From positions 1-64,000 of the forward strand of contig CAJINV010000012.1 in the NCBI GenBank assembly GCA_905178155.1: a DNA stretch of 64,000 bases, given 5' to 3'. The position numbers were made by a program, and so were the translations under genes. This document shows positions 2,558 to 52,586 of the stretch, piece after piece. How positions within the stretch are numbered: the first letter of the stretch is position 1; each line of letters starts with the position of its first letter. The notes below the pieces were generated by a model. The model had not been told where the DNA came from. It saw nothing but the letters and a program-made list of their open reading frames with translations, and ran no database searches. This DNA is from Amoebophrya sp. A120. Its lineage: Eukaryota > Protista > Dinoflagellata.

Positions 2558-4637
2558 CATAAAATCTTTGTCTCTGTTCTGGATGAACCTTGCAGTGTCT
2601 CTTCGGTGCAGTTGCAGAGCGTTTCGGTTGAGTTTTGTAAGAAGCAGTCTGGTGGCGCTGTGTAATTGAAGCTGCTGAAGTTCATCTCTAACTCTACTTA
2701 CGGAAAATTATGCATGAATTCGTTGCAGCATCAACAGCAAGCGTTCATGGATAATTTGTAGCTACTTGTTAAGCAGACACGGGCATCGGGATCGGCATGT
2801 GCTCGACTAAGTATTGTTTTTCTGTCTGGTACTACTGCTAGGGCCAATGCTTCTTCCAAAACTACTTGCTTCATCCATGTTGCACTTCTTGAATACACTT
2901 CTGCAACGCAAAAGCATTGCGGGACGTCCAGGCCCGGGACAAGTGTTGTTTTTCGATTGATACACGACGTGCCGACAGTGCAGACGTACATCAAGGACTC
3001 CCTCTTCTCCTTGGCTCCGATTCCGCCCACGAACGGTACAACCGGAGCAGCAGATGACCCGTTCGTCAACGCAACCACTGGCAGTCGTGATTCCGGCGGC
3101 GGGGAAACCACGCATCGTGCAGGCGAAGACCGTGTCCAAGAGCCGACGTTGGAGGTGAACTTCCTCTACCCTGGGAAGGGTCTGACGCGGTCGCCGTCGC
3201 GGAGGAGGAGGTCCAAGAAAACCGGCAAACTGTCCGGCGAGAAGCGGGTCGAGAAAACGGAACAAGAATTGTAGGAAAAAACGAAAAACTACCTTCATTC
3301 ACAACACACACGCTCGACGAGAACAAACAGTTGATGAAGCAGAAAAAACTACGGAGTGAACAATAAACACAGGAACAAGTACCAAGAGCTTCCTTCTAGC
3401 CTCTCTTCTACACTGCTGCATTCTAGTACAGCAGACGATCGCACATCAGATGCGGATCAGAACCATGGCAACGGGTGCTTAGTGGATGCGGAGAGTGTTG
3501 TGAGGTTCATTTTCCCTCCCCTGGGTAAGTAGACGCAAGCCCTAACCGAAACTGTTAGATTTAGATAGTACTAAGCTACTTTTGATCGTTATTCTACGTC
3601 AGATTCGACGAACATTTTGATGTTCTTTGTTGTCCTTCAAATATTAAACTTTGGAGCATTACACCGCAAAAGCAAATAGTACGAAGCCCGTGTCACCTCA
3701 ACATCACAAGCAATCGCTTCAGTTTCTTATATTTCAACAGCAAGTCGCAACATCATTCAAACGCTTTTGTTTATCTGCATAGCATTGTTTCTCGTTGCAA
3801 ATGAAGCAAGAGAAGTTCGTGTCTTCAAAAATCATTCGGCTCGCATGAGCTAAAGTCCCAGCTTGTTTACAACTTATCAATCTCTGTTATTTCGTTATCG
3901 TTAACGTTTTCGTTTACATTTGAATATATAATTTCACTCACCGCCACCATGTAGTACCATACAGCAAAGTTGGACGCAACAGCAGACGCCGCCTTCGAAG
4001 CAAAAATAGTATTAGCAGTAAGCGAGCACGCATCTATGCAACCGAATCGACGCCCTGTACAGTTCTAGTTGTTGCCACCTTCATACGAAAGCACAAACTT
4101 CCTCTACAACAAGCTGAGCCGGTATGTGCGCGCTCCGTACCGATGCGTCTGTTCTATCTGCGCTCAACTTCAACTTGCTTGACGAGCTCGTGCTCTGTGC
4201 GTTGATGTGTTTGTGATGTCCGCAATATTTTAAATGGAGAGATGGAGTTGGAGAATGGCAAGGAGGCGCAGATGGAGATGGAGAAAGCCACCTCGTATGA
4301 AGCATCAAGTCATCATGATCTAAGACTGAGTCGCTGTATAAAATGCGCATACAGCCTGCATTTTTAAAGAGTGAAAGCGATGAGGAGGAGTTGTTGGTGA
4401 CTGCGTCTCCGAGGGGACAGTAGTGCAGCACCAGGTGGAGAGGCACTGGTGCTGCGTTTCTCTCATTTTTTTTTGGTTTTTTTTAGGGCGACCTCGTCCC
4501 ACCGCATTAAGTATTAACTATAGTTGCATACAAAGGGCGCACCGCTGCAGGGCCGCGACTCGTCAGTCGAGGTCGTCGAAAAATTGCTGCCTTCTTGCGC
4601 AAGTGCACGATGGAAGTCGAGGTACAGACAGATCGTA

Positions 4638-7600
4638 GATTTCTTTTCCAGGGCGGCAGGGACTTTCTACGCCCTCGACCTGGCTTCCGCAGGGCGCGGC
4701 GTAGAAAGTCCCTACCGCCCGGGGAAAGAAATTTCTGCTTTGTGTTGCGCAAAAACAACTTTGGGCGTGGATTTCTTTTCCAGGGCGGCAGGGACTTTCT
4801 ACGCCCTCGACTTGGCTTCCGCAGGGCGCGGCGTAGAAAGTCCCTGCCGGCCGGGGAAAGAAATCTCCGATTTGTGTTGCGCAAAAACAACTTTGGGGCC
4901 GGACTTCTTTTCCATTCTTTTCCACGGTGGCAGGGACTTTCTACGCCCTCGACTTGGCTCCCGCAGGGCGCGGCGTAGAAAGTCCCTACCGCCCGGGGAA
5001 AGAAATCTCCGATCTGTGTTGCGCAAAAACAACTTTGGGGGCGAATTTCTTTTCCAGGGCGGCAGGGACTTTCTACGCCCTCGACTTGGCTCCCGCAGGG
5101 CGCGGCGTAGAAAGTCCCTACCGCCCGGGGAAAGAAATCTCCGATCTGTGTTGCGCAAAAACAACTTTGGGGGCGAATTTCTTTTCCAGGGCGGCAGGGA
5201 CTTTCTACGCCCTCGACTTGGCTCCCGCAGGGCGCGGCGTAGAAAGTCCCTACCGCCCGGGGAAAGAAATCTCCGATCTGTGTTGCGCAAAAACAACTTT
5301 GGGGGCGAATTTCTTTTCCAGGGCGGCAGGGACTTTCTACGCCCTCGACTTGGCTCCCGCAGGGCGCGGCGTAGAAAGTCCCTACCGCCCGGGGAAAGAA
5401 ATCTCCGATCTGTGTTGCGCAAAAACAACTTTGGGGGCGAATTTCTTTTCCAGGGCGGCAGGGACTTTCTACGCCCTCGACTTGGCTCCCGCAGGGCGCG
5501 GCGTAGAAAGTCCCTACCGCCCGGGGAAAGAAATCTCCGATCTGTGTTGCGCAAAAACAACTTTGGGGGCGAATTTCTTTTCCAGGGCGGCAGGGACTTT
5601 CTACGCCCTCGACTTGGCTCCCGCAGGGCGCGGCGTAGAAAGTCCCTACCGCCCGGGGAAAGAAATCTCCGATCTGTGTTGCGCAAAAACAACTTTGGGG
5701 GCGAATTTCTTTTCCAGGGCGGCAGGGACTTTCTACGCCCTCGACTTGGCTCCCGCAGGGCGCGGCGTAGAAAGTCCCTACCGCCCGGGGAAAGAAATCT
5801 CCGATCTGTGTTGCGCAAAAACAACTTTGGGGGCGAATTTCTTTTCCAGGGCGGCAGGGACTTTCTACGCCCTCGACTTGGCTCCCGCAGGGCGCGGCGT
5901 AGAAAGTCCCTACCGCCCGGGGAAAGAAATCTCCGATCTGTGTTGCGCAAAAACAACTTTGGGGGCGAATTTCTTTTCCAGGGCGGCAGGGACTTTCTAC
6001 GCCCTCGACTTGGCTCCCGCAGGGCGCGGCGTAGAAAGTCCCTACCGCCCGGGGAAAGAAATCTCCGATCTGTGTTGCGCAAAAACAACTTTGGGGGCGA
6101 ATTTCTTTTCCAGGGCGGCAGGGACTTTCTACGCCCTCGACTTGGCTCCCGCAGGGCGCGGCGTAGAAAGTCCCTACCGCCCGGGGAAAGAAATCTCCGA
6201 TCTGTGTTGCGCAAAAACAACTTTGGGGGCGAATTTCTTTTCCAGGGCGGCAGGGACTTTCTACGCCCTCGACTTGGCTCCCGCAGGGCGCGGCGTAGAA
6301 AGTCCCTACCGCCCGGGGAAAGAAATCTCCGATCTGTGTTGCGCAAAAACAACTTTGGGGGCGAATTTCTTTTCCAGGGCGGCAGGGACTTTCTACGCCC
6401 TCGACTTGGCTCCCGCAGGGCGCGGCGTAGAAAGTCCCTACCGCCCGGGGAAAGAAATCTCCGATCTGTGTTGCGCAAAAACAACTTTGGGGGCGAATTT
6501 CTTTTCCAGGGCGGCAGGGACTTTCTACGCCCTCGACTTGGCTCCCGCAGGGCGCGGCGTAGAAAGTCCCTACCGCCCGGGGAAAGAAATCTCCGATCTG
6601 TGTTGCGCAAAAACAACTTTGGGGGCGAATTTCTTTTCCAGGGCGGCAGGGACTTTCTACGCCCTCGACTTGGCTCCCGCAGGGCGCGGCGTAGAAAGTC
6701 CCTACCGCCCGGGGAAAGAAATCTCCGATCTGTGTTGCGCAAAAACAACTTTGGGGGCGAATTTCTTTTCCAGGGCGGCAGGGACTTTCTACGCCCTCGA
6801 CTTGGCTCCCGCAGGGCGCGGCGTAGAAAGTCCCTACCGCCCGGGGAAAGAAATCTCCGATCTGTGTTGCGCAAAAACAACTTTGGGGGCGAATTTCTTT
6901 TCCAGGGCGGCAGGGACTTTCTACGCCCTCGACTTGGCTCCCGCAGGGCGCGGCGTAGAAAGTCCCTACCGCCCGGGGAAAGAAATCTCCGATCTGTGTT
7001 GCGCAAAAACAACTTTGGGGGCGAATTTCTTTTCCAGGGCGGCAGGGACTTTCTACGCCCTCGACTTGGCTCCCGCAGGGCGCGGCGTAGAAAGTCCCTA
7101 CCGCCCGGGGAAAGAAATCTCCGATCTGTGTTGCGCAAAAACAACTTTGGGGGCGAATTTCTTTTCCAGGGCGGCAGGGACTTTCTACGCCCTCGACTTG
7201 GCTCCCGCAGGGCGCGGCGTAGAAAGTCCCTACCGCCCGGGGAAAGAAATCTCCGATCTGTGTTGCGCAAAAACAACTTTGGGGGCGAATTTCTTTTCCA
7301 GGGCGGCAGGGACTTTCTACGCCCTCGACTTGGCTCCCGCAGGGCGCGGCGTAGAAAGTCCCTACCGCCCGGGGAAAGAAATCTCCGATCTGTGTTGCGC
7401 AAAAACAACTTTGGGGGCGAATTTCTTTTCCAGGGCGGCAGGGACTTTCTACGCCCTCGACTTGGCTCCCGCAGGGCGCGGCGTAGAAAGTCCCTACCGC
7501 CCGGGGAAAGAAATCTCCGATCTGTGTTGCGCAAAAACAACTTTGGGGGCGAATTTCTTTTCCAGGGCGGCAGGGACTTTCTACGCCCTCGACTTGGCTC

Positions 7601-8663
7601 CCGCAGGGCGCGGCGTAGAAAGTCCCTACCGCCCGGGGAAAGAAATCTCCGATCTGTGTTGCGCAAAAACAACTTTGGGGGCGAATTTCTTTTCCAGGGC
7701 GGCAGGGACTTTCTACGCCCTCGACTTGGCTCCCGCAGGGCGCGGCGTAGAAAGTCCCTACCGCCCGGGGAAAGAAATCTCCGATCTGTGTTGCGCAAAA
7801 ACAACTTTGGGGGCGAATTTCTTTTCCAGGGCGGCAGGGACTTTCTACGCCCTCGACTTGGCTCCCGCAGGGCGCGGCGTAGAAAGTCCCTACCGCCCGG
7901 GGAAAGAAATCTCCGATCTGTGTTGCGCAAAAACAACTTTGGGGGCGAATTTCTTTTCCAGGGCGGCAGGGACTTTCTACGCCCTCGACTTGGGCCCCGC
8001 AGGGCGTGGCGTAGAAAGTCCCTGCCGTCCGGGGAAAGAAATCTCCGATCTGTGTTGCGCAAAAACAACTTGGGGGACGAATTTCTTTTCCAGGGCGGCA
8101 GAAACTTTCTACGCCCTCGACTTGGCTCCCGCAGGGCGCGGCGTAGAAAGTCCCTGCCGCCCGGGGAAAGAAGTCTCCGATCTGTGTTGCACAAAAACAA
8201 ATTTGGGGCCGGACTTCTTTTCCAGGGCGGCAGGGACTTTCTACGCCCTCGACTTGGCTTCCGCAGGGCGCGGCGTAGAAAGCCCCTGCCGCCCGGGGAA
8301 AGAAATCTCCGGTCTGTGTTGCGCAAAAACAAATTTGGGGCCGCACTTCTTTTCCAGGGCGGCAGGGACTTTCTACGCCCTCGACTTGGCTTCCGCAGGG
8401 CGCGGCGTAGAAAGTCCCTACCGCCCGGGGAAAGAAACCGCCGATCTGTGTTGCGCAAAAACAACTTTGGGGCCGGACTTCTTTTCCAGGGTGGTAGGGA
8501 CTTTCTACGCCCTCGACTTGGCTTCCGCAGGGCGCGGCATAGAAAGCCCCTGCCGCCCGGGGAAAGAAATCTTTCTCCGATCTGTGTTAGGCAAAAACAA
8601 CTTTGGGAACGAATTTCTTTCCCAGGGCGGCAGGGACTTTCTACGCCCTCGACCTGGCTCCCC
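4638..8663. repeat. Tandem satellite, 132-bp unit, ~30 copies, each with an internal hairpin
   Basis: Lines recur exactly every 660 bp (5 x 132); unit contains GGCGGCAGGGACTTTCTACGCC ... GGCGTAGAAAGTCCCTACCGCC inverted repeat; central copies identical, flanking copies diverged. Confidence 0.97.
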
Positions 8664-9432
8664 CTGCAAGAGGACAAGCGCCGCTTCGTGGTTTGTTAAT
8701 TTCATCGGCCCTGGCGCTTCCATAAGACGACACGACATTGATGCAGCAGCACCGTGCCCGCGATTCTATCTTTGCCTTGGTTCATTACTGGTGTTAGCCC
8801 CCTTTTCGGAAAAAAGCTCCAGAGTGAGTTGAGGCGCAACAACGACAACGAACTGCACGCGGCACGAAGGCGCGTACTCAATAGCGAAAAAATGACAATA
8901 AGCGGCTCGCCCCCTCCACACGGAGCCTCTGAGCCATCGTCTTCTAACGACGGCGACGGATCACCCACCGCAGATCCGGTTCAAAACCTTCTCAAGGCAG
9001 TCCAGAAAAACGAGGAAAGGGAGCAAAAATATCCATACCACACGCAGTCGAAGAAGCTGCAGGACGACAATGAGGCGCTGAAGAAGAGTAATGAAGAACT
9101 GGAAAAAAATATCAAATGAAAATTGTAAAAAACTAAAGACATAGTCGTCTCGGGTCAACGCAATAAATGCATGATCTCCGTTTGCCATCAATCTCCTTCC
9201 GGCTTATTTATGTACACCACAGGGTGTGATCGCTACATCGCATCGAAGAAGATGCTCTTTCACTCATGATCTTCTCTCTTCACACTCTTAATTTATCGCG
9301 GTATGCATAAAATTATACTTCCCTCTGGCGGAGATAGATGCGCATCGACTGAAAATCTCGCAGTTATTCCGTCTTGGTAAGGAGTACACTATTTCCTCGT
9401 GAACGATGGCGACACTTGTCTTTCTTTCTTTA

Positions 9433-37504: not shown

Positions 37505-40189
37505 ATGCTACACAAGCTGTTTCAACATTCCTCTTCCTGCGTCTCAATGGCAAAATGGCGACTCCCTCGAAAGCTCTCGTATGCGATGGTGCCCCCTGCA
37601 TCCCTATTTCTGACCCGGAAAGCCGCACAGTGGAGACTGCGGTACGAGCAGGATCAAGCGACAGCAGCAGCTCCAGAACAACATCACCCACGACACCACA
37701 CGCCGGATCACGACCAAGGGGAAGGATACGGACTTCCCGGGGGGAGCTCCAACATCCAAAAAGGAGGGAGCAGCAGCAGCACTCGACCTCCGGGGACCTG
37801 GTCGTGCTCATCGAATGTAACAAGCCGACCAAACTCTCCCGGAGGTGTGTATCAGCAAGACCAAGAAAACTTCGTGCAAAAGTTCGATTTGATCAACATC
37901 GCGGAGCGCTGCAACATCATGGGCACCTCGAAGTTGGACTATTCGGAAATCCGGAAGTGGCACCAGGCGCGGGGGTACCTTGGGGGGATTGTTATCCTTT
38001 GTAAAAATTTTCCCACCCCATAGCTCTTCTTCTTGGTTCTTCTTGTCATGCAATGCTGCATGTCTCTCATGTGGAGTCCCATGAAACGCATTTGCTATTG
38101 CTAGCGCTGTTTCGAAGTTATTTGTGATGCTCGAATCAGGCGCATGAAACGCTATTTTTGTGATGCTGCTGCACTAGCTAAACCCGACTACACTGCGATC
38201 CCAAACTTATCATGCGCAACAACAGCTAGAGCCTGTTGATTTGTGTTGCAGATTTCCAAACTCTACTACGGTGCCGCGGGGACGTTTTTGTACGGGATAA
38301 TCGTGGTCCGGCAGCTGGATAACATGAAGCACAGCAACGACACGGTAGAAACGGGAGACCGGACTGCGTTTGGAAAACTTATGGACGATGCTTTTCAGGT
38401 ATATGATGCAGGTCTTGCATTACAAATTTCTTTGTCAAGGCAAATCAGCATTACAAATTTTATTTCTCATGCTGAGAAAATTTGTAAATGCATTTACACG
38501 AGTACGATACTTTTGCAGTTCATAAGGTATAGCCATTACTTATTCTCAGTACTTGCCATGCAAATGATCAACTCCATAGTTGTAAAAAACGCGACAGATC
38601 AACACAGATACCGTTCTCGTCATTTCCACTTGTCCCACAGCACTCCAAAAACAACGGAATCTTTTCAGGCAATCTCCGCTTACCTTCCCGCGAACTTCTT
38701 CGAAAAAAGTCCCTTCAATTTCGCCCATTTGATCCCCGAGGAGCTGCAGGAGCCGAAGAAAATCAAGATGGAATCCTTCCTCTTTGACAAGCTTGCAAAC
38801 GAAACCGAATCGATGCGGCGGGAGTGCTACTACCTCTACTACGAGATGTGCGGAAAAACCGGCGATCGGACCTACGAGGTCTTCATCCGCGGGACGTTAA
38901 TTTGGTCTGATTGGTGGCGTATGCATTGCAAAACAAGTATCGTACTCGTATAAATGCGAGTCTAGCATGACAGATCTGCTTTCTGACCTGAATCTGCATG
39001 ACAAATTTCATTTTTCTTCTACGAAAAATTTGTCATGCAATTCATACTAGTACGATAGGATACTTTTGCATTGCATATGGTGCAACTTGAACTTCCGGAA
39101 GGTTTGGGACACGGAACTAGAAAAGTACATCCACGCTGGATTTCTCCGGAAATCCGACATTCTGCTGAACGATTTGGAACCCTTGCTGCAGGACCGGCAC
39201 GGCAAGATCAGACTGCATGGACACTCACTGGGCGGCGCCATGGCGGAAATAATTGGGCTGAAATTGGAGAAACGAGGTTTCTATGTGGAGCAAGTGACCT
39301 CCTTCGGCGCACCGAAGTTTTTGACCTGCTGTCTGGGCGATAATAGTACATTGGGAGCAACAGCAGAGCCAGAAGTTGTCGTGTTGGAGGAACAGCATGA
39401 CAAGAAAGAGAAACCCAGCAGCGACTTTATCACTATCACGGCGGCGAACGACCCAGTTTATGAACTGCAAAAGTATCGTACTACTTGTACTTGTAGTAAT
39501 CGCAGTCATGCATTGCAAATCTTTATCCCTCCAAGGCAAAACAGCATGACAAATTCCATTTGTCATGCTGAGCTAATTTGTATTGCAATTACTACTAGTA
39601 CGACACTTTTGCAGTTCATACAGTTCCTTACATGCCGATTGAAGGCCCGGCATCTTGCTGGTTCAAGGGCTGGTATGTGAGCTACGGAAAAAGGTTTCAT
39701 CTTGAAGACTCCGGTTCTCATGATGTTTCAGCAGAATCACATCAGCAACCTGACAAGCAGAACTACACACTTTTCCCTTTCGGCTCCTTCCTCCACTGGC
39801 TCCAGAATTCGTTCCTCGTCGTCCCGTTTAGCAACCCGGACTCGCACCGATTGAAACATTACATCAAACTGTTGGAGGACGAGGAAAGCCGTTTCTCCTC
39901 TGTTGCAGACACTGACGGCGCAGATGAACAACGGAAAAAAGTAGGAGCAGAGACAGCAACTAGTTCGGCACAGGAAGTCGCAGTGGCACCAGAAGATCGG
40001 GGACTGCAACTGCCTGAGCTACAAATCAACTCGAGCGAAGAGGGTGATGTGGTGGGAATAAAGCAGCTGTTGCAGCAGACAACAGGCGACGTGCCTCCAA
40101 GTCCACCCGAGCCTCTTCCTCGTCCTGCCGCGCATGAGGTGCTTAGAGAGCCTGTCGAAGTCACTTCGAAGTCCGGCGCACTTCAGTAG
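37505..40189 (+). CDS. Class 3 lipase (alpha/beta hydrolase)
   Basis: IRGT...DW, IHAGF, GHSLGG, TSFGAPK, NDPV|P, H near C-terminus; reconstructed by removing 3 exonic introners and intron 38399-38668. Confidence 0.85.
37993..38299. mobile_element. Introner family H
   Basis: TATCCTTTGTAAAAATTTTCCC...GGGACGTTTTTGTACGGGATA; DR ATTGT/ATCGT. Confidence 0.85.
38402..38524. mobile_element. Introner family A lacking left TIR body, inserted in a GT donor site
   Basis: TATGATGCAGG...CGATACTTTTGCAGTTCATA; DR AGGTA/AGGTA. Confidence 0.8.
38920..39077. mobile_element. Introner family A
   Basis: TATGCATTGCAAAA...TTTTGCATTGCATA; DR TGGCG/TGGTG. Confidence 0.9.
39459..39620. mobile_element. Introner family A (reverse orientation relative to 24679)
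   Basis: TATGAACTGCAAAAGT...ACTTTTGCAGTTCATA; DR CAGTT/CAGTT. Confidence 0.93.
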
Positions 40190-40559
40190 AGGCTTCTCCG
40201 TGGAGAAAAGGAGCTCAGCCGACAAGGACAACCTCGAGGGAGCTTTTGCTCTTTCGTCCTCGTCTTAAAAATGCCGATCCTGTTATTATTCTATTGCAAC
40301 AAACATGATCATAGCACATAATTATTGCGCACGAACTGCAATTGAAATTGCATGCACTGTCTACTACATTTGACTCTTCGCGGCGCATATTTATTTTACT
40401 AGCGCCGTTGCTCTGCTCGACAGAAGCGTTACCAACGTGCCGGTCGTGCGAGCGTGGTTTTGTACGTCCGTGTTCTTCCAGAGCCAAAATCGTCAGAGCT
40501 TGCGAGACGAGATGTGAACCGCAATAGACATGGCGCGACTTTCTTCACACGGATAAGAG

Positions 40560-43500
40560 TGGAACAGGCTTGGGGCGGCCTTTGCTACTTTTCTAGGCCC
40601 AAGCCCTGGCGTCTCGCTTTCTCTAGCCAGGTGGCGGAGTCGGAAAGGAAACGCTGGCACTGGGCCCGGTTCCGTGCGAAATGCGCCCCATATTATTGGA
40701 AGCCGCACGGAAAGGGCGCCCATTGGATTGGACCGGGCTGCGTGTGTGTGGATGGTGCCGGATTGGGCCGGCACGCTGCCCGCTGCCTGGGTGCGTCGCT
40801 CTCCAGCTTCGGGGCCGCGGCCAAAACATTTGCGCCCCGGCTTGGCTGCTCGGCGACCTTAGCAAACCAATCCGGCCGGGCTGAAGTTTGTCGGAAGGCT
40901 GGAGCCTGCGGCCCAGATTTTTCATCGGCAGGCATGGCATTTGGGGCGGACTGGGCCGCGTGAACGGTCAGCGAGCAGGCAACCCGGCGCAGGCCGGGCC
41001 AGTGTGGGCTCTATCTTCGGAGGCGTGGCACTTGGCCGCCTCAAGCGACGCCGCCCGGGCGGCCCAGTGCGTGGCTGCCTGTGGTCGGAAGCCACGCGCC
41101 AAGGCGTTTGCTTTGCTGGCTTGGTGGCCAGCTCCGAAGAAACGCCGCCCCCGCCCGCCTGTATCACAAGGAGCCAGGGCGGAGAGAGGACGGCGACCCC
41201 GCCCGGTCTTGTGTGCTTTCTTTTGGCCCGCCGCCCGGGCCCAGTGGCTTGGGTGAGGCCCGGCCCGGCGCCGGGCCGCGCCTGTGTTCCTTCGGCCCGC
41301 CCATCCCCGCCCGCGAACGGAGGGGCGCCCGAAAAGGCGCGCGCCGTTCGTTCTCGGGCGCGCGTGCGCCCCACATCATAATGTAAGCGCAGGACGCGTC
41401 GCTGTCGGTTTCTCCTTTCAGGTTGCGGCTATTTTCACCGGGCGCCGGCCCTATCGCGCTTTATTTTGCATTTGATAGCGGTCGCGCGAGGCCAGTTTGC
41501 AGCGCTTACAGGTGGGGCATCGTAAAGATGTATGAGCTTGGCGGCTGTGGGCCATCGAGCATACCGCTAAGCGTCTGCCCGAGCGACGACAGCAAGCGGA
41601 GGGGCGGGGGACCGAGGGCGCGCCGGGCCCCCAATGGCCGCGCGCGCCGGCAGTATCTGCCTGGGATCAGGCAGCCGGCCCGAGGCATTTTCCGCTAGTA
41701 AAATTTTTTTAAAATGTCACTAATTCCGGGAATCGCGGGCCGGCTGGCTGGGTGCGGCACCCTTTGGGCACGCGCCGCATTCGGGGAGGGGGGCGCGGCA
41801 TAGTGTGGCGCCCCCGCTTTTTGTTTTCCCGGGTCGGTGCCGTAAGCTTCCGGGCCGTCTCCCCTGGTTGTGTGCTCTCCCCCGTCCTCTTGGGGATGGG
41901 GGCCGCTTATCGTTGGGCCTTTTCGCGCGCGCGGCGCCTTTGCTTTTGGTGGTGGCCTGCCCTCGGGCGCTCTTTTCCCTTACCTCAGGGAATGCCTCGG
42001 GTCGGGCCCTTGCCCGGGCCTTCGGTTTTTCTTTGTCCGGTATCTTTGCAAGGGAGGGGGGTCCTGTGGTGTGGTTTGGCACACAGGGGCTGCTCCTCGT
42101 GGCCATGGCTCAAATCCACCGGGGCCCGGCGCCTTTGCATTTATGGGGGGCAGCGCGCAGCGGGCCCGGCTCTGGAAATCAGGCAGGCGCGAGGCCGGGG
42201 CTTTTTGGTCTTTCAAACACCACCCCGATCCCGGGCGGCTAATGAAGAGGGTAATCCCGGCGGTAATTTCCGGGGTTAATCTGACCACAACGAAATCGGG
42301 AAGGTTTCGTTGGTTTTGAAATTAGACCAAAAATTAGACTACAGATTAGACTATAAATTAGACCACAAATTACCCCAAAAACCCAAGGAATTAACCTGCC
42401 CCCGGGGGGCAGTCACTCCGCCAGAGCATTGGGTTTTCAGTTGGCGCCATTTGCCACCACTTGTCCTGCTTTTTCTCGGCAGGCCGCCCGCCCGCAGTTC
42501 CCGCCCGCCCGTGGCCTTTGCGTCTTTGAATGGATTCCCCCCGACCGGTGCCTTTCCCAATTTGCCCCGAAGATTGAAGGGGTGGCGCTCTGGAAACCCA
42601 CGAACAACAGGCCCGCCGGGGTCGCGTTCCGGCCTCCGTTGTGATTTGGTGGAGGCCCCCCGCGCGCAGGCTTCGCAGGCTCCTGGGCCTTTCTTCGGTG
42701 CCGGGGCACCCTGTGGCGCCTTTCCCGGCGCGCGCCCGCCTCCCCTTTAGGGGGGCGCGGGGGGGGTGCCTGGAGGGCGGCGCCCGCGATGGCTATGCGC
42801 CCCCGGAAGTATGGTGGCACCCCCGGCGCGTTTTCTAGTCGGGCCCCTCTTGCGCCTGCCCTCCTTCGCTTTGGGGATTAGCCAAACTTCAGCCAGGAAT
42901 TAACGAAATAGCTTGCCACGGGCCGGCTGCCTGACTGGGATGCTTTTTGCCCGCGGGCCGTTTTGTGGGCCCGCCGGGGGCGCGCCAGGCAGCGAGGCAG
43001 CCCCCCCCTGTCTTGTCCGCGCCGGGCGGGCGGGCCCCTGGCTGCCCCCGGTGAGCCGCATACGCCTGTCCCCTTGTGCAAACCATTGGGCGCCCGAGGG
43101 TCGGTGAGCGCCTGGCGCGGCCTGTTGGTGCAATGTGTGCGCAGCTGCCATGCGCAGAGGCGGCGCGCGGGCCCGGGCAAACGGTCCGCGGCCCGGTGGA
43201 TGATCTGGGGCGGGCGTTTCCGCAATATTGACGCATGCACCGTCGGCGCCCGCCAGGCAGCGTTGTTGTCGACCTACCTTCATCCCGCTCCTGCGTGTAG
43301 GAGAGGTTTTCCGAATGGAGAGTGTTCCGGGGTTTGCGAGCAGGGGAACAAACTTCGGGTGATTGAGTGAAGGTTTTTTTTGAAGTGAGAGATAGTGGAA
43401 GGGAGCAGCGTTTTCTTTGTTCTATTATTCTAGCAAAAGCGCTAATCGCGCACTCTCAAATGCGAATCGAGTCGGAGTCGCTCTTGCCGCCGATTCCTGG

Positions 43501-44230
43501 TATGTAGTGAGGTCACCGAACGGTTCTAACCAGGGAATTTTTTTGCCACCCAGACAGCAAAACGGCCGCCAGTTTTCAAGCGGGCGAAAGTGTTTTTTGA
43601 CGAAAAAGATTTTCAATTATCAAGCGGACGGGGCTTTGCCGTCAAACAAGCCCGGTCGAAAACTATCGATTCGCACTTGATAAAACGACGCAGGGGAGCT
43701 GGCAAAAGGGGCGCCCTTCTGAGGCGCCCACCGCCTTAGTTTCTGGCGATTTGGGGCGCCCAAAAAGGGGAGCGCAAAAAACGCGCCCAAAATCAGAACA
43801 GCGAAACAGCATGGCGCGGCCGCGATTTCGGAGCATTTTGGGCGGCCGCGAAAGCGGCCGCCTTTTCGCCGGTTTCAGAGCCGGGGAAGCTTTGCAAAAA
43901 GCGCCGGCGCGAAAAATAAAAACGCGAAAAAGAAAAAGCGGCCCGTACGCGCAAAGCCAATCCGCATGCTATGGGCCCGATTTTTCTTCGCTTTTTGGGT
44001 GCCCCCCGTGGCACCCGGATCGGCCCCATAGCATGGGGGCTGGCCTTCGGAAAGGAGCTTTGCAAATGTGCTGAAATTTGTGACGTTTCTCAAGTGACCG
44101 CCATACCGTGCGGCATAACGTTACTCAGGGCGGTATGGCGAGCCCAGAAAAAGCAAAGCCGCGGCCAAGGCAGCGGTCGGCAAAAAAACGTCCACGACCT
44201 CACTACCCCCGCCCCGGCGGCTATATTTGG
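40560..44230. mobile_element. Large GC-rich intergenic block, probably nested transposon relics
   Basis: GC-rich segments separated by short AT islands; tandem ATTAGACYA x4 at 42321-42366; no credible ORF. Confidence 0.4.
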
Positions 44231-44337
44231 TAGACTACATGTAGCCACTACGAGCGGTGCGAGTACTAGAACCGCCCGAGGGAAAATCCTTCTCTGTGTT
44301 TCCGGCGACATTGAATCCACTTACAACCAAGCAAACC

Positions 44338-46381
44338 ATGTCCTTCCCATCCCCCTCTCCCGGCGGTCTCGTCATCTCCCCCGCCCGCTTGAAACTCTTC
44401 GCCACCGTCTACGGGCCGGGTGGAAAAGTTATCCGGCCGCTGCACTTTTCCTACGCACAGAAGAACAGCAAAACTTTGCTCCTCCGTCTGGAGTTCGAGC
44501 AAAACGTGTTGCAGCTGCTCCGGGCGAAATTTGTCAGCGTGGAAACGGCGAACAATGTGATAATCGATATGTGGGTGTCAGGATTGAAATCGACAAAGCT
44601 GAACAAATAACCTGTAATGTATAAAACCGATACCAATTTGACCCACAGTTTCTAGTCGGCGCATGACAAATTTTGTCCGTATTGAAAGGCAGTTTGTCAT
44701 GTTGTTTAGGGCAAAGGGGCTCCCCTCTGTCATGCGAATCAGCATCCCAATGCTCGACCCTTACCAGCACTAAGTACAATCTGCCTTCCTTGCGTCCTCT
44801 GCAATAGAGGCAATCTCTGCGTTGCATTTTATGCATGACCTGACGATTTCCATTCTGACGCGTCCATAATCGAAACTCGGGAAGTCCGGGACGACGGAGA
44901 CGAAAACTCAACTGCCAGCTCGACGGCGTCGGCCGATGGCGAGGACAAAGCAGATGCTGAAACGAAAACCACCGCATCTCCATCTTCGGTCAAGAAGAGG
45001 AAAAGGTCCAAGTCCCGCTGGTTTGAAAATGGGTTAGCGAAGATTTTTGCCGGCACAGGTAGCAATTCAAACAAATTCGAGTACGAGGTCACCTTGCGGA
45101 TTCCGAACAACGACGAAGAGGCTCCGCTGTTTGGCCAGACACCAATCCAGGCTGCGCGGATGTTTCTGTTGCAGAGAAGAGGAAGGAGTAAGTCGCCATC
45201 TACTTCAACAGCGGCTGGTCCAGAAGATTCACCGTCTCGATCTGGTGCGCAGGAGTCCTCCTCGTCGCGGAGGGGAGAACAAGCCGGCTCCTCATCTGCA
45301 GCAAAAACTGCAGCTTCAGCATCACAACCACCAGCAACCGCAGGAACAGGGGCTCTCGCCCGCGGCCGCGCCCATCTCAACCGGCTGGAGCAACTGTCGG
45401 CCGCGGCGCAGACGAACCAACTCGCCAACGCCGCTTCCGCTTCGTCCCGCTCCGTGATCCATCTAGCGAATTTGATCGAATACGGCACCGGCACGCGGCA
45501 GATTATGCCCTGCAAAAGTATCGCGCTAGTAGTATTGCATTTGCAATACAAATCAGCTGAGCATGACAAATGGAATTTCTCATGCTGGTTTAGCTTGAAA
45601 AAGAAATTTGTCTTGCATTACTGTGATTACTACATGAGTGCGATACTTTTGCACAGGATACAGATTTGGCGTGAGCAGATTGTGAGACAGGAGTTAGTCC
45701 CGGAAGAGCAAGTCCGATACCGCATAACGGAGAATTTCTCCGTCGGCGACGCGACCGTTTCCGGAGCAGGAACTGGAGGGTGTATCCACAGAAAAAAACC
45801 CATCCACATCCAATTTGTCATGCAAAACACGCATCAAGTGATGTGTTTGCCATGCAAAAAAAGTGATGTGGATGGTTTTTTTTTTTCTGTGGATAGGGTG
45901 TTTTGGCTTTCTAGTTGGGTACGGACTGGCGTTTTTGTCAACACCACCTTCTCCAGGGGCGACAACACCACTTCCTGGGGCTTTTTCGGGTGGTGCAGGA
46001 GGTGCAGGAACAACTGCAACAGCTGCTTCGGCATCAACAAAAACAGCAGCAGCGGGATCTGCAGCATCTGCATCTTCAGCAACTTCAGCTTCCGGAGCAG
46101 GAGCAGGTCCAGCTTCTTCCAGTACAGTTCTGAAAACCCTGAAGGCGGTGGCGCTCGCAGCTCCACACGCGTTGGTCCCAGCGAGCGTATTCGCGTTGCT
46201 CGGCGTTTTTTACGGCGGGGTTTTCGGGTATTTGAAGGATGTGACGAGAAATGACCCAGTGCAAGAGTTTGAGGAATACGGGTGTAACTCTTTCTTGGTT
46301 GATTTCTTGGATGTCCTCAGAAACCCGAGCGGCAGACGGATGACCGCGCAAGACCGAATGTACCTGGGCCTGACTGCGTAG
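44338..46381 (+). CDS. Hypothetical membrane protein, 4 exons
   Basis: MSFPSPSPGG...; frame restored across 3 introners; hydrophobic segments GCFGFLVGYGLAFL and VFALLGVFYGGVFGYL. Confidence 0.7.
44568..44868. mobile_element. Introner family C
   Basis: TATGTGGGTGTCAGGATTGAAATCG...CGATTTCCATTCTGACGCGTCCATA; DR ATCGA/ATCGA. Confidence 0.9.
45504..45660. mobile_element. Introner family A
   Basis: TATGCCCTGCAAAAGTATCGC...GCGATACTTTTGCACAGGATA; DR CAGAT/CAGAT. Confidence 0.92.
45783..45895. mobile_element. Introner family F (short)
   Basis: TATCCACAGAAAAAAACCCATCCACATC...GATGTGGATGG(T)nCTGTGGATA; DR GGGTG/GGGTG. Confidence 0.92.
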
Positions 46382-46998: not shown

Positions 46999-49656
46999 AT
47001 GAACACCTCCATCCGCTCCCCCGCTTCTTCCTCCCGAGCTTATGAATTGCAAAAGCATCGTACCAGTATAAATTGCATCAAAAATTTTGGCAAGAATGGC
47101 AATGGAGGAGGAATTTGTAATGCTGTTTTCCCTTAGGAAAAACATTTGTCATGCATATTTGCAATTAGTACGAGTACGATACTTTTGCACAGGATAGAGC
47201 TGCCCCCGCGGCACCTCCCCCCTCCGACAGCCCAACCGTGGGGCATAAAAACCCAGGTGCCTCGTCGAAAAACGACGACCGCGCGATCGGGAAGCAGTTG
47301 GAATCTATCAAATGTAGAAATGTCTGGGTCTGGAAGCTTGCCAGGTTTGTCATGCATATTTTGGAAGACTCATGATGTCTGTGATGCATGCTCTACTAGC
47401 ATGACAGATTTTTAAAGGTCTTTGCGATGCCTCTACCGCATGAGAAATGCCCTCTCCGGGTAGCACAAACTGGAGTTCTGTTGCCGGTCATGCAATGCAA
47501 ATTTTTTTAGAATCCAGAGACAGCATCACAAGTTTAGAATCTTCCAGACCCAGACATTTTTACAATTGATAGAATCGGACCGGCCGACGTCCGCGTGTTA
47601 CTCCTTCGGGAAATCCGCGACCCGGGAGAAGAGGAAGCTATCAAATGTAAAAATGTCTGGGTCTGGAAGAGTGCAACTTGTCATGCTAAAATGGAAGCAT
47701 GCAAAAATCTGTGTTGCATGATTACCAAAAGCTGTCCACTTTTGACCTAATCGAGAGACAGTTTCTCATGCAGGAGAGGCATGATAGAACTCTCACAGAA
47801 TCTGTCATGCTCTGTCCTACTTGCCAGACCTCATGAGTCATGTAAAATCTGCATGACAAGTCTGGCATTCTTCCAGACCCAGACATTTTTGCAATCCATA
47901 GAAGCTGTGCGGGGACATTTTGATCGGATCGGGCTCGGATTTTCTAGGAAGGACATCTCCTGGTGTGACGTACGATTTGAATTTGTCATTAGTCTTATGC
48001 ACTGCAAAATTATCTTCGTACTAGCATGGATAGATTGCATCACAATTTTTTCCATAAGGACGAAAGATGGAACTTGTAATGCTGATCTGCCCATAGAAGC
48101 GAGATTTGTCACGCATATAATACTCGATTGCACTTAGTGCGATATTACTTTTGCAGAGGATAAGTCTCCCGGTGGAAGGGGACGACTTTTGGGAAAGCGG
48201 CGAGACCGACCTCCGGAACGGTGGCCTACCCTCCGAGCACGAACGATCTGAAGTGCGTGATACCGAAATTTGACAATATCAAAAAGAAAAATCCCCCCTC
48301 CCCATATCGAAAACGAAATTTGTGATGCTGTATTTGAGTACACAAATCGACCTGTATTGCTAGAAGGCCAAGAGACGCAGCCGTGGCCTGAATTGCAGGC
48401 AATTTGTCATGCTGTTTCCCACTTCCAGTTGCCTCGTGTCATGCTGGAGATGCGATACTTTCCCACACTAGGTAGCACTACAGTCCGCATCTTTTGCCTT
48501 CTAGCATCACAAAGCTGATTTGTGACCACAAATCTGCATCACAGATTTCCGTTTTGATATGGGGAGGGGGGATTTTTCCTTTTGATAGACAAGTACCGGA
48601 ACAAGCAGGATGGGAGGGTGGTGTTCGGCAGGGAGACGAGGGAGGTAGGATTCTTGGAGAAGTGTGCTTCGATCTATTTTGATCATGTGGCTACCACGAC
48701 GGTCTATCTTCTTACGGTCATGCGGAAATCAAAGCTGCACAGTTCTGCTGTATTGCTCATTCTCTTAAATTATGCAAACCTGCATATACAAACTTGTTCA
48801 GGCCGGCGCGAAGAACGGCGCCAACGCGGTGAAGGGCACCGGGAACTCCGAGTTCTATGCCAGAGAATCCCCCGGTTGCATCTACGACCCGAAGGATAAG
48901 TTGGTGAAGGAAATTGTGACCCGGAGCTGGACCATGGGCATGCGAACGAAGATTATCGGAATGAAGGATCCGAAGAACGTGGTCGATCCGGAATCGAATC
49001 TAAAACCGGAAACCGCAATGGGGAAGCAGTTGAACTCGCGAAAGCCGTCGGCCATGGGCAGGTCGTTTTCCAAAGCGTCCAGGTTCGGGAAGAACGCCAG
49101 TGAAAAGGACAGGGAAAGGGAGAAACTGTTTGCTGTCCAGAAAGCAGCAGCGGCGAGACCAGCGACGGCGCCTTCCGGCGGTGGAGGTGGGACAACAGAA
49201 GTTAATACTGCTGAGGGTGATGCTGGTACTGCTGGTGCTGCAACGAAGGGGGCAACAATAGTACCACCAGCAGCTGCACAACCACAACATACCAAACACG
49301 CCGCCACGACCGGTCAGCAGGTGGTCTTAACCAAGATTCAACGCGGTTTGGGGAAGCAGATAGACTTGAAATCCGCGCCGGTGTTCGGAATATCCAGGAA
49401 AAAACACCAATCCCCATCCACTTTGTCATGCAAAACATGCATAAAATCCGGCGTTTGTCATGCGAAAAATGAATGGGGATGGGTGTTTCTTCCTGGATAC
49501 GGAATTAGCAAGTGCTCCCGGGACAAGAGATCCGTTTCCGGCAACATGATAATCAAAGAAGACAGACCGGCGGCTCTAAGCAACATGCAGCACCAGAGGT
49601 TACCGCACAATTTCAACTACCCGGCGCCGAGTGCGGTGAGGAAGTGGGGGTCATGA
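46999..49656 (+). CDS. Repeat protein with GKQ-x-x-S-x-R/K-P and SPG motifs, probably ODF3/STPG(SHIPPO)-like axonemal protein; 8 exons
   Basis: IGKQLESDRPTSACYSFGK, RTSPGVTY, ESPGCIY, MGKQLNSRKPSA, LGKQID..SAPVFG; 6 introners plus GT-AG intron 48645-48801. Confidence 0.6.
47041..47196. mobile_element. Introner family A
   Basis: TATGAATTGCAAAAG...CTTTTGCACAGGATA; DR GAGCT/GAGCT. Confidence 0.92.
47306..47571. mobile_element. Introner family B (reverse orientation relative to 31835)
   Basis: TATCAAATGTAGAAATGTCTGGGTCTGGAAG...CTTCCAGACCCAGACATTTTTACAATTGATA; DR GAATC/GAATC. Confidence 0.93.
47639..47900. mobile_element. Introner family B
   Basis: TATCAAATGTAAAAATGTCTGGGTCTGGAAGA...TCTTCCAGACCCAGACATTTTTGCAATCCATA; DR GAAGC/GAAGC. 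Confidence 0.93.
47996..48162. mobile_element. Introner family A
   Basis: TATGCACTGCAAAA...TTTTGCAGAGGATA; DR AGTCT/AGTCT. Confidence 0.9.
48277..48587. mobile_element. Introner family E
   Basis: TATCAAAAAGAAAAATCCCCCCTCCCCATATC...GATATGGGGAGGGGGGATTTTTCCTTTTGATA; DR GACAA/GACAA. Confidence 0.93.
49391..49499. mobile_element. Introner family F (short, in-frame and stop-free)
   Basis: TATCCAGGAAAAAACACC...GGTGTTTCTTCCTGGATA; DR CGGAA/CGGAA. Confidence 0.92.
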
Positions 49657-50288: not shown

Positions 50289-52586
50289 ATGGCCAAGCTC
50301 AGCCTGCAGAGTTACATCTCGCAAGGGCACGCGGATGGAGGAGGAGATGACTTTCCGCTGCAAATTGTGCAGCAATTCTTCTTCGCCACGCATCAACGCA
50401 AAAGCAAGACGTTGCCGGCTCTGCGCAGTAGTAGAGAAACGCAGTCTAGTATTAGTACAACATCTTTCGCGGCACTGACACAGCCGCCCGAACGACCAGC
50501 AATCGCGAGGACCACGACTGGACACGAGATGCAGAAGCAAGCAAAAAACGAAACTTCATCCAAGCTCGACCTACTCTCCCGCCCCTCCTCCTTCGCCGCA
50601 GCCACGGACAAACCGCTGAACTGCGACCTGTCCCACCACGGACTGGGGAACCTCCCTTCCCCCGAGGATTTCTGTATCCAGTGCAGATATGTCTGGGTCT
50701 GGAAGAGTGGTCCGAGTTTGTCATGCTAGTCCTGGTTGGCACCAATAAAATCTGTGTTGCGTGAGCAGCAGAAGCACGCGAGGATGGCATTTCTAATGCA
50801 GGAGGTTTAGGCATTTTTGCAGAGCCTTGTCCAAAAGTCAAAGTGTGATGCTATAACTCGCATTCCAGGCCTTCTGGGCCATGCGAAACCAGCATGACAG
50901 ACAAAACATTCTTCGAGACGCAGACACATTTGCATTTGATATCCTGCACTGTGAAACGAAACGGCGCGGACGCGGACGATGCCGATTTGAAGACGAAGGA
51001 GGAGCTATGCAATGCAAAGGCATCGTCCTAGTATAAATTGCATTACAAATCAGCCCAGCATTACAAATTAGCCTGCCCAGCATTACAAATTAGCCTGCCC
51101 AGCATTACAAATTAGCCTGCCCAGCATTACAAATTAGCCCAGCATTACAAAGTAAATCTGTAATGCTGATTTGCCTTGAGAAAGAGATTTGTATATGCAT
51201 GAATGCAATTACTACGAGCGCGATACTTTTGCACAGGATAGGAGCTCCTGGATGTCGAGTTGAAAAAAGACACCAGCATTGCGCACTATTTTGAGAAATT
51301 TATCCTCGCAAACTTCGACCCTTACACGAAGATTCCGGAAAAATCGTATGCATTGCAAAAGTATCGTACTCGTAGTATTGCAATACAAATTAGCTCAGCA
51401 TGACAAATGGAATTTCTCATGCTGATTTAGCTTGAAAAAGAAATCTGTCTTGCATGACTGCGACTAGTACGAGTGCGATACTTTTGCACAGGATAAATCG
51501 AAGAAAGTGAAAATCCTCGAGCACTGTCTTTCTGACACGATATCCCACGAAAAAACTGTTTCATTGTGATGATTTTGCAAGATCTGCATCACAAGTTTGT
51601 TACGCATGACACCCAAAATTTGTCATGCGCACTTCCCAAGGGAAAACACGCTGGAAAACCCAATGCCTTGCAGGTGTAGCAAGACAAATAGTTCTGTGTT
51701 CCATTTTCTGCATCACAGGTTCACAGTGAAACAGTTTCTTCTTGCGATACACGAAGAAGCTACTCCAATGGCTGACCAACAGCATCGAGGACTGCAAGAA
51801 GAAAGCCCACGACCGGGAGCCAACCAGCAGCCAGGAGCCGGCGGAGTTGGTGCCACTGGCGGCTATGAACTGCAAAAGTATCGTACTCGTATAAATGCAT
51901 TGCAAATTTCCTCAGCATGAGAAATAAATTTGTAATGCAGATTTGCCTTGGAAACAAGATTTGTAATGCAAGACTTGCATTAGCATGATTTGTACGAGTA
52001 CGATGCTTTTTGCACAGGATAGCGGCGTATCAAATACAAATGCATTATGTATGCCTGGGTCTGAAGAGAACGAAACTTTAACTTGTGATGCTCGGTTGTA
52101 GATGAATGCAGAACTTCTCAATGCATGCACGCATGTCACGATCAAGAAGTTCTTCCAGCGGCGCTCTCTGCTCTCAAGAACATCCGTTACTTTTGGCGGA
52201 CATGCAACACAGATTTTCTAGAGTTGGAAAACATGCTGTATTTTCCGGACCCAGACATATTTGCATTTGATACAGCGAACGCGTTAAAAGTGGAGGAAAA
52301 GGGGGTCACGGCGCGGCAGGCTCTGGAGAGAGATTTGAAGCAATTGAAGGCGGAATTGAGAAAAGCACCGGATGAAAACAATCCGCAATACGCGCCCTGT
52401 GACGCGAAGAAGGGACCACCACCAAGGCCATGGTGCATTTTCTTGGACGGACCGAAGGAGCGAGAAGGTGAAGATATCCATACTGAAGATGAAGTTTGTA
52501 CTGCTGCGAACCCAGAGACCAGATTTAGAGGACAGGTGGAAACAAATGGACCCTTCATGGGATCTTTTGGGGCGAATATTTTTTGA
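50289..52586 (+). CDS. Hypothetical protein interrupted by 6 introners
   Basis: MAKLSLQSY...EDFC|TVKRN...EEL|LDVEL...EKS|KKVK...DT|KKLL...LAA|NALKVEEK...GANIF; stop-free after removal. Confidence 0.75.
50675..50941. mobile_element. Introner family B
   Basis: TATCCAGTGCAGATATGTCTG...CAGACACATTTGCATTTGATA; DR TTCTG/TCCTG. Confidence 0.9.
51006..51240. mobile_element. Introner family A with internal 22-bp tandem expansion
   Basis: TATGCAATGCAAAGG...CTTTTGCACAGGATA; DR GGAGC/GGAGC; CCCAGCATTACAAATTAGCCTG repeats. Confidence 0.92.
51347..51495. mobile_element. Introner family A
   Basis: TATGCATTGCAAAAGTATCG...CGATACTTTTGCACAGGATA; DR AATCG/AATCG. Confidence 0.92.
51541..51749. mobile_element. 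Introner family I
   Basis: TATCCCACGAAAAAACTGTTTCATTGTGA...TCACAGTGAAACAGTTTCTTCTTGCGATA; DR CACGA/CACGA. Confidence 0.9.
51864..52021. mobile_element. Introner family A
   Basis: TATGAACTGCAAAAG...TTTTTGCACAGGATA; DR GCGGC/GCGGC. Confidence 0.92.
52028..52272. mobile_element. Introner family B
   Basis: TATCAAATACAAATG...CATATTTGCATTTGATA; DR CGGCG/CAGCG. Confidence 0.88.

Follow-up and report, generated by a model that had tools for sequence, protein, structure and literature searches.

A TIR-truncated introner at the donor of a 270 nt intron in a class 3 lipase gene of Amoebophrya sp. A120

The window analyzed here, a 64,000 nt stretch of contig CAJINV010000012.1 of Amoebophrya sp. A120, contains a class 3 lipase gene whose coding exons and associated elements are listed in Table 1. 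The five exons in the window, when joined, translate exactly to P0001, a 590 aa class 3 lipase of A120 (Pfam Lipase_3, E=6e-11), and the open frame 38303-38917 matches both P0001 (A120) and P0002 (A25). In the public annotation, the 270 nt segment 38399-38668 is thus already spliced out, and it is absent from the annotated protein. This segment begins with GT, ends with AG, and is in frame and free of stops as originally predicted, and 0.24% of 5000 base shuffles are likewise free of stops; its retention as coding sequence is contradicted by both P0001 and the transcript contigs.

Table 1. Features of the lipase locus and of the introner within its 270 nt intron
Feature	Coordinates	Strand	Evidence
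Class 3 lipase gene, five coding exons	37505-37990, 38303-38398, 38669-38918, 39082-39453, 39621-40189	+	Exact P0001 translation, contig joints
Exonic introner of another family, weak TIRs (16/25)	37993-38299	+	X1 spliced 12.1, retained 6.4; main X2/X4 contigs read through
Exon 5′ of host intron	38303-38398	+	X1/X2/X4 contigs; coding score +8.0
9 nt direct repeat CTTTTCAGG, left copy, across donor	38391-38399	+	Sequence
Left TSD AGGTA	38397-38401	+	Sequence; 5 bp TSD plus TAT..ATA layout common to other elements
Host intron, 270 nt, removed whole	38399-38668	+	Skip of 270 in X1/X2/X4 contigs; absent from P0001; GT-AG register inferred
Family A introner, 123 nt, left TIR reduced to TATG	38402-38524	+	Alignment to L094 copy
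Right TIR, intact	38501-38524	-	Exact match to family TIR pattern
Right TSD AGGTA, GT at 38527	38525-38529	+	Sequence
Unique distal part of host intron	38530-38668	+	No blast match in loci; coding score -9.4; GC 41%
9 nt direct repeat, right copy, with acceptor TTTTCAG|G	38661-38669	+	Sequence, contig joints
Exon 3′ of host intron	38669-38918	+	X1/X2/X4 contigs; coding score +8.5 (first 138 nt)
Exonic family A introner, both TIRs intact	38920-39077	+	Exact removal, 163 nt, non-canonical ends; 24 end-to-end pairs
Exonic family A introner, both TIRs intact	39459-39620	+	Exact removal, 167 nt, non-canonical ends; 24 end-to-end pairs

Contigs assembled from X1 (depth 38.8), X2 (18.9) and X4 (11.3), which are runs of one sample, join position 38390 to 38661 and thereby skip 270 nt. 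The RNA label of these runs is a guess, but as their contigs show intron-sized skips and have zero depth at 40768-43435, where X5 has coverage, we argue that they represent RNA. X5 is DNA, and 20,972 of its contigs map over 20 kb, mostly onto elements. Assembled contigs lose rare intermediates and forms; among the raw-read runs, X7 and X8 gave 0 reads and X9 gave 410 reads, on one repeat only. Nine letters at the joint 38390/38661 fit either side; of the ten equivalent registers, one gives GT..AG. Because this 9 nt repeat hides the cut site from the reads, the GT-AG register of the host intron is one that we infer. Thus, the prediction of a GT-AG intron at 38399-38668 with a junction 38398^38669 held for the removal of 270 nt, which is seen in the contigs and in P0001, whereas the position of the cut is masked. 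The repeat itself, CTTTTCAGG, had been expected at both ends of the host intron and was found there and nowhere else on either strand of the window; a chance match of its five letters beyond CAGG has a probability of about 8e-4.

Other introners in the window are removed as well. Direct joints in the contigs demonstrate exact removal of the introners at 38920 and 39459, piece lengths do so for those at 45504, 45783, 56125, 56354, 56720 and 57068, and removal of those at 44568, 49391 and 52028 is supported by one boundary each. Just 6 nt (52022-52027) lie between the introners 51864-52021 and 52028-52272, whose TSDs overlap, and the frame is continuous once both are removed. The region 40400-44100 is GC-rich, harbors no TAT..ATA introners, and has no transcript contigs over 40768-43435; a repeat at 43498-44232 is shared with the survey locus L045m (87%). 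No introners were found either at 4500-8830, where about 4.2 kb of repetitive sequence, with Pfam noise in multiple stretches, has several open frames on each strand and is likely a tandem repeat.

Within the 270 nt, a family A introner is flanked by copies of AGGTA at 38397 and 38525, confirming that the donor AG|GTA is duplicated as the direct repeat. By inference, the donor now used is the AG|GTA within the left TSD, and the right TSD likely holds the original donor. The GT at 38527 does not serve as a donor in any of the five listed X1 joints, and splicing from it would retain 128 nt and break the frame. The nearest relative among the matches listed is the intact copy L094:877-1025, which is 95.8% identical outside the gap; the two differ by a 27 nt gap, one inserted base and four substitutions. 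The left TIR body is gone through one 27 nt deletion at 38405^38406, after base 4, a loss unique to this copy when aligned with 12 family A copies. The terminal TATG and CATA and both TSDs are retained. Thus, the left TIR body is absent as predicted, but through a single deletion sparing TATG and the TSD rather than by gradual decay. By the description of A120 introners, the element has the direct repeat of 3-5 nt at its ends and is repeated in the genome (14 two-ended family A copies in the window and at least 217 when the survey loci are added), but it lacks a TAT-starting inverted repeat of 8-20 nt pairing both ends. It is a derived, defective copy of an A120 introner, a young one carried by a probably canonical intron.

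The host intron would have been 142 nt long, donor included, before the insertion, which is close to the length of the 157 nt canonical intron of the window (48645-48801). The 3′ end of this latter GT-AG intron coincides with an X3 piece boundary. The distal part of the host intron has a lower GC content than the exons (52%), its coding score is below those of all 216 held-out coding windows, and it has no blast match across 483 kb of survey loci among the matches listed. A match of the distal translation to P0027 was inflated by eight repeats and treated as chance.

The window was scanned for TAT..ATA ends with a 5 bp duplication, which returned 48 candidates as against 1-5 in each of ten shuffles, and profile searches yielded 44 two-ended elements, 14 of them of family A. 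All 44 score as coding across the empty site; no nested element other than the focal copy was therefore found in the window, in agreement with the original prediction. One family A copy (51006-51240) reaches 235 nt through an internal 22 nt tandem repeat and has both TIRs intact. A TIR-pattern scan of one related assembly gave at least 154 stretches, which after merging correspond to at least 151 loci and 483 kb; long unique matches to the window are absent from them. The partner end was sought for every one of the 228 exact TIR matches in the window and in the loci among the matches listed. Clearly one-ended family A copies among these matches are the focal one, L045m:14905, L047:4886, L084:199 and L038:479. 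Three ambiguous copies (L095, L116 and L056) were held apart, and copies at locus edges, copies with the partner end past an insertion, and L001:1571, likely chimeric with flanks on opposite strands, were left out of the count.

None of the five one-ended copies has coding sequence on both sides, in contrast to 193 of the 217 two-ended family A copies among the matches listed, including the near-duplicate loci L109/L110 and L002/L019 (p=2.8e-5; p=1.1e-3 when the three ambiguous copies are counted as exonic). In the other families, which were not picked by the TIR pattern, 0/4 one-ended copies (by eye) and 285/304 two-ended copies among the matches listed are coding-continuous (p=2.4e-5). Contexts were judged by eye; an automatic nested-intron finder misjudged the strand of the focal site and also reported copies known to be exonic, and a first coding classifier was discarded for its 30% false positives (89/300). 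As delimited from reading frames, the introns around the L045m, L047, L084 and L038 copies are putative GT-AG introns of 271, 282, 279 and 93 nt, and the one at L038 is probably untranslated. The L047 copy, whose truncated end carries the donor, likely has a history like that of the focal copy. The protein flanking the L084 copy presumably resembles a proteasome beta subunit and that flanking the L047 copy, we assume, a CFAP97-like protein; a Pfam search gave no support for these two labels. The host introns of the four one-ended copies in coding regions measure about 140-155 nt without the element, which is near the 150 nt length of family A.

Several rearranged copies were encountered in the survey. 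Large internal insertions are present in the introners L007m 505-1608, L059 3355-4502, L019 2255, L098 301-613 and L090 301; three of these share the same second repeat, and both TIRs are kept where both ends are visible. L031 1804-1957 is a family A copy with the TSD GCAGG whose right TSD lacks three bases, and its GT-AG ends still keep the frame. L001 1571-1800 consists of halves of two element types between flanks coding on opposite strands, representing an inversion or an assembly chimera at the repeat. In two-ended family A copies among the matches listed, all 30 deletions of at least 6 nt fall at model positions 37-127 of 150, which partly follows from the definition of two-ended copies.

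Point-level comparisons did not distinguish the TIRs by context. TIR identity was 19.3/25 in 35 low-scoring and 19.2/25 in 433 coding two-ended copies among the matches listed (p=0.89). In the sense hairpin, G-U (332) was not favored over A-C (302; p=0.25), and the mismatch at TIR positions 11-13 (4.5-8.9%) was not clearly below that of the TSDs (6.8%). Mismatches between TSDs were even over the five positions and did not fix a splice register. We rejected the idea that a GT-AG-compatible TSD frees the TIRs; among the matches listed, such TSDs were not enriched in exonic copies (13/463), and the TIRs of these 13 were no weaker (p=0.87). With equal TIR identity and no preference for G-U, gradual decay is not seen, and the contrast between contexts consists of the loss of a whole TIR. 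The comparison of TIR integrity between exonic and other copies that had been proposed, made here among the matches listed, thus separates them by whole-TIR loss and not by identity. The claim that TIR decay is tolerated inside introns is partly supported by the absence of coding-continuous one-ended copies but not by any extra point decay; likewise, selection on exonic TIRs finds support in the five family A and four other one-ended copies, and none in point-level constraint.

With its flanks, the focal element has a predicted fold of -40.1 kcal/mol (z -2.4) with no end-to-end stem and 0 end-to-end pairs, and the intact L094 copy is predicted to form a long rod (-65.5 kcal/mol, z -7.0). The 174 coding-context family A copies among the matches listed have a median of 22/30 TIR positions paired in the predictions, and ten of them have at most eight predicted end-to-end pairs, which argues against a need for the TIR hairpin. 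In the window, 43 of the 44 two-ended elements have 14-29 predicted end-to-end pairs, and 37993-38299 has 0; this sole element without end pairing is also the one seen retained, a single case in contigs among the pieces listed. Its retention introduces an in-frame stop at about 38021. As for the intron nested within an intron that had been predicted, the element does lie inside the removed 270 nt, but two splicing steps are not apparent: the X1 contigs contain no joint at its own ends and have no depth over 38548-38651, and no pairing of its ends is predicted.

More than 60% of Amoebophrya introns lack GT-AG ends and no U1 snRNA was detectable, and the removal mechanism was left open (PMC7789003), while a hairpin was proposed for introner splicing (Farhat et al. 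2021, PMC7789003). The window elements resemble the A120 introners described there in having many copies, non-canonical ends and a predicted hairpin, in the short direct repeats that span the exon boundaries, and in inverted repeats that start with TAT and precede an A-run; the focal copy differs in that one TIR is lost and it sits within a probable GT-AG intron. The DR/IR layout is reported in 15% of A120 canonical introns (PMC7789003). Sections 10, 11 and 16 of that paper present no test of TIR need, and the main texts of PMC7789003, PMC12130899, PMC9860276 and PMC11282704 do not use the word "nested". Literature searches by title and abstract opening found no description of one-ended introners inside canonical introns; the supplementary repeat layouts of PMC7789003 may bear on novelty. 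The [D] stwintrons of Xylariales fungi, as described in PMC12403724, are similar in that the insert lies at the donor of the outer intron, carries near-terminal inverted repeats, and sometimes leaves with the whole unit as one canonical intron. There, however, an inner U2 intron splits the donor and must go first, whereas at the focal locus the donor is duplicated as part of the TSD around a non-canonical inner element, and the X1 contigs show no two-step route. A complete AG|GTA remains upstream of the element and leaves the outer splice signal uninterrupted. MITE-derived introners of Micromonas and Aureococcus and the nonconventional introns of euglenids likewise combine a TSD with TIRs and co-opt splice sites from the TSD, and TIR pairing has been proposed to join intron ends in euglenids (PMC11282704). 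In contrast to the canonical splice motifs of the Micromonas and Aureococcus introners (PMC11282704), those of Amoebophrya accept any 5-mer as TSD.

Our data are most readily explained by a family A introner that entered the donor of an older 142 nt GT-AG intron, lost one TIR, and now probably leaves as a passenger in one canonical step. The TSD would have duplicated the donor AGGTA and kept a complete AG|GTA upstream, so that no earlier excision step is needed. Without 27 nt of its upstream TIR the element would no longer pair end to end, and the whole 270 nt would be spliced out from the duplicated upstream donor. The stop-free 270 nt (p=0.002) and the improbable 9 nt repeat count against the passenger explanation, which accounts for neither. 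The open frame would be expected if an exonic insertion had lost its TIR and been rescued by splicing between the GT of the TSD and an AG further downstream, so that about 46 codons became intron. The downstream frame is also open through the distal 138 nt (p=0.08), the distal part at L047 is likewise open, and two anchors enclose 130 residues in the A25 ortholog and 84 here, a difference of exactly 46. Yet the distal translation resembles A25 no better than shuffles do (p=0.78), among the seven other homologs in which both anchors occur, five show 71-86 residues in this interval and one shows 32 (P0022 lacks an anchor), the distal coding score is out of the coding range, an additional one-base frameshift is required, and the distal parts of L045m and L084 contain stops. 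Such an intronization is improbable. We consider equally unlikely a two-step removal as in stwintrons, in which the element would be excised first through its TATG/CATA ends and TSD and the 142 nt intron would follow; the intact ends and TSDs fit this order, and exact excision would restore the original donor, but X1 lacks an intermediate joint and depth within the intron, no end-to-end pairs are predicted, and the complete upstream donor makes a first step unnecessary.

The 9 nt repeat would fit a host intron that arose long ago from an insertion or duplication and has since decayed, or from an old introner whose TSD was TCAGG and which turned GT-AG, as TAT follows TCAGG just as in introners. 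However, its distal part matches no element family or locus among the matches listed and resembles neither flanking exon (p=0.10 and 0.50), a 3′ TIR is absent, and the lack of enrichment of GT-AG-compatible TSDs in exonic copies speaks against such conversions. This doubtful history concerns the origin of the host alone and is compatible with the passenger explanation. A further proposal refines that explanation without replacing it: an intact hairpin would hide or compete with the canonical donor, and insertions would persist mainly after deletion of the upstream TIR. In all five family A one-ended copies, each in an inferred GT-AG intron, the upstream TIR is missing (p=0.06 among the matches listed) although the lost end of the element varies (3 vs 2), and adding L034m and L031 (another family) gives 7/7 (p=0.016 among the matches listed). 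Four one-ended copies are no more than about 30 nt from the donor, the place that leaves the least space for deletions. Of 24 low-scoring two-ended family A copies among the matches listed, none was clearly within a coding-region GT-AG intron (19 inspected by eye, the others judged from ORF lengths), and the one-ended copies are no older than others, with 85-96% identity to the nearest copy (median 87%, among the matches listed). This pattern suggests that a hairpin may do harm when it lies intact at a donor. On the other hand, numbers are small, contexts were judged by eye, and automatic detection of intact copies in nested positions gave noisy results; the elements are nearly missing from non-coding DNA in general, consistent with fast neutral deletion, and the surviving ends of L038 and L031 lie close to the acceptor, so that the direction of loss in these two copies requires no selection. 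We therefore regard selected loss as a tentative possibility.

Returning to the passenger explanation, exonic introners would need the TIR hairpin for their own excision, and one-ended copies would survive only in canonical introns or outside coding sequence. It is conceivable, though we hold this view only tentatively, that two routes compete, one hairpin-guided for introners and one at GT-AG ends, that insertions at a canonical donor do harm while their hairpin is intact and survive mainly through deletion of the upstream TIR, and that one-ended copies are a genome-wide set of natural mutants showing TIR pairing to define the non-canonical ends. The element type is already known (Farhat 2021); what is new are natural mutants that bear on how it is spliced, a mechanism not yet solved. 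Taken alone, the locus is a defective copy of a known element, and its value lies in making that mechanism testable. One-ended copies separate the sequence of the element from its pairing, and their survival can be counted from public genome and RNA reads. These results suggest that paired ends are likely needed only when the element must be spliced alone.
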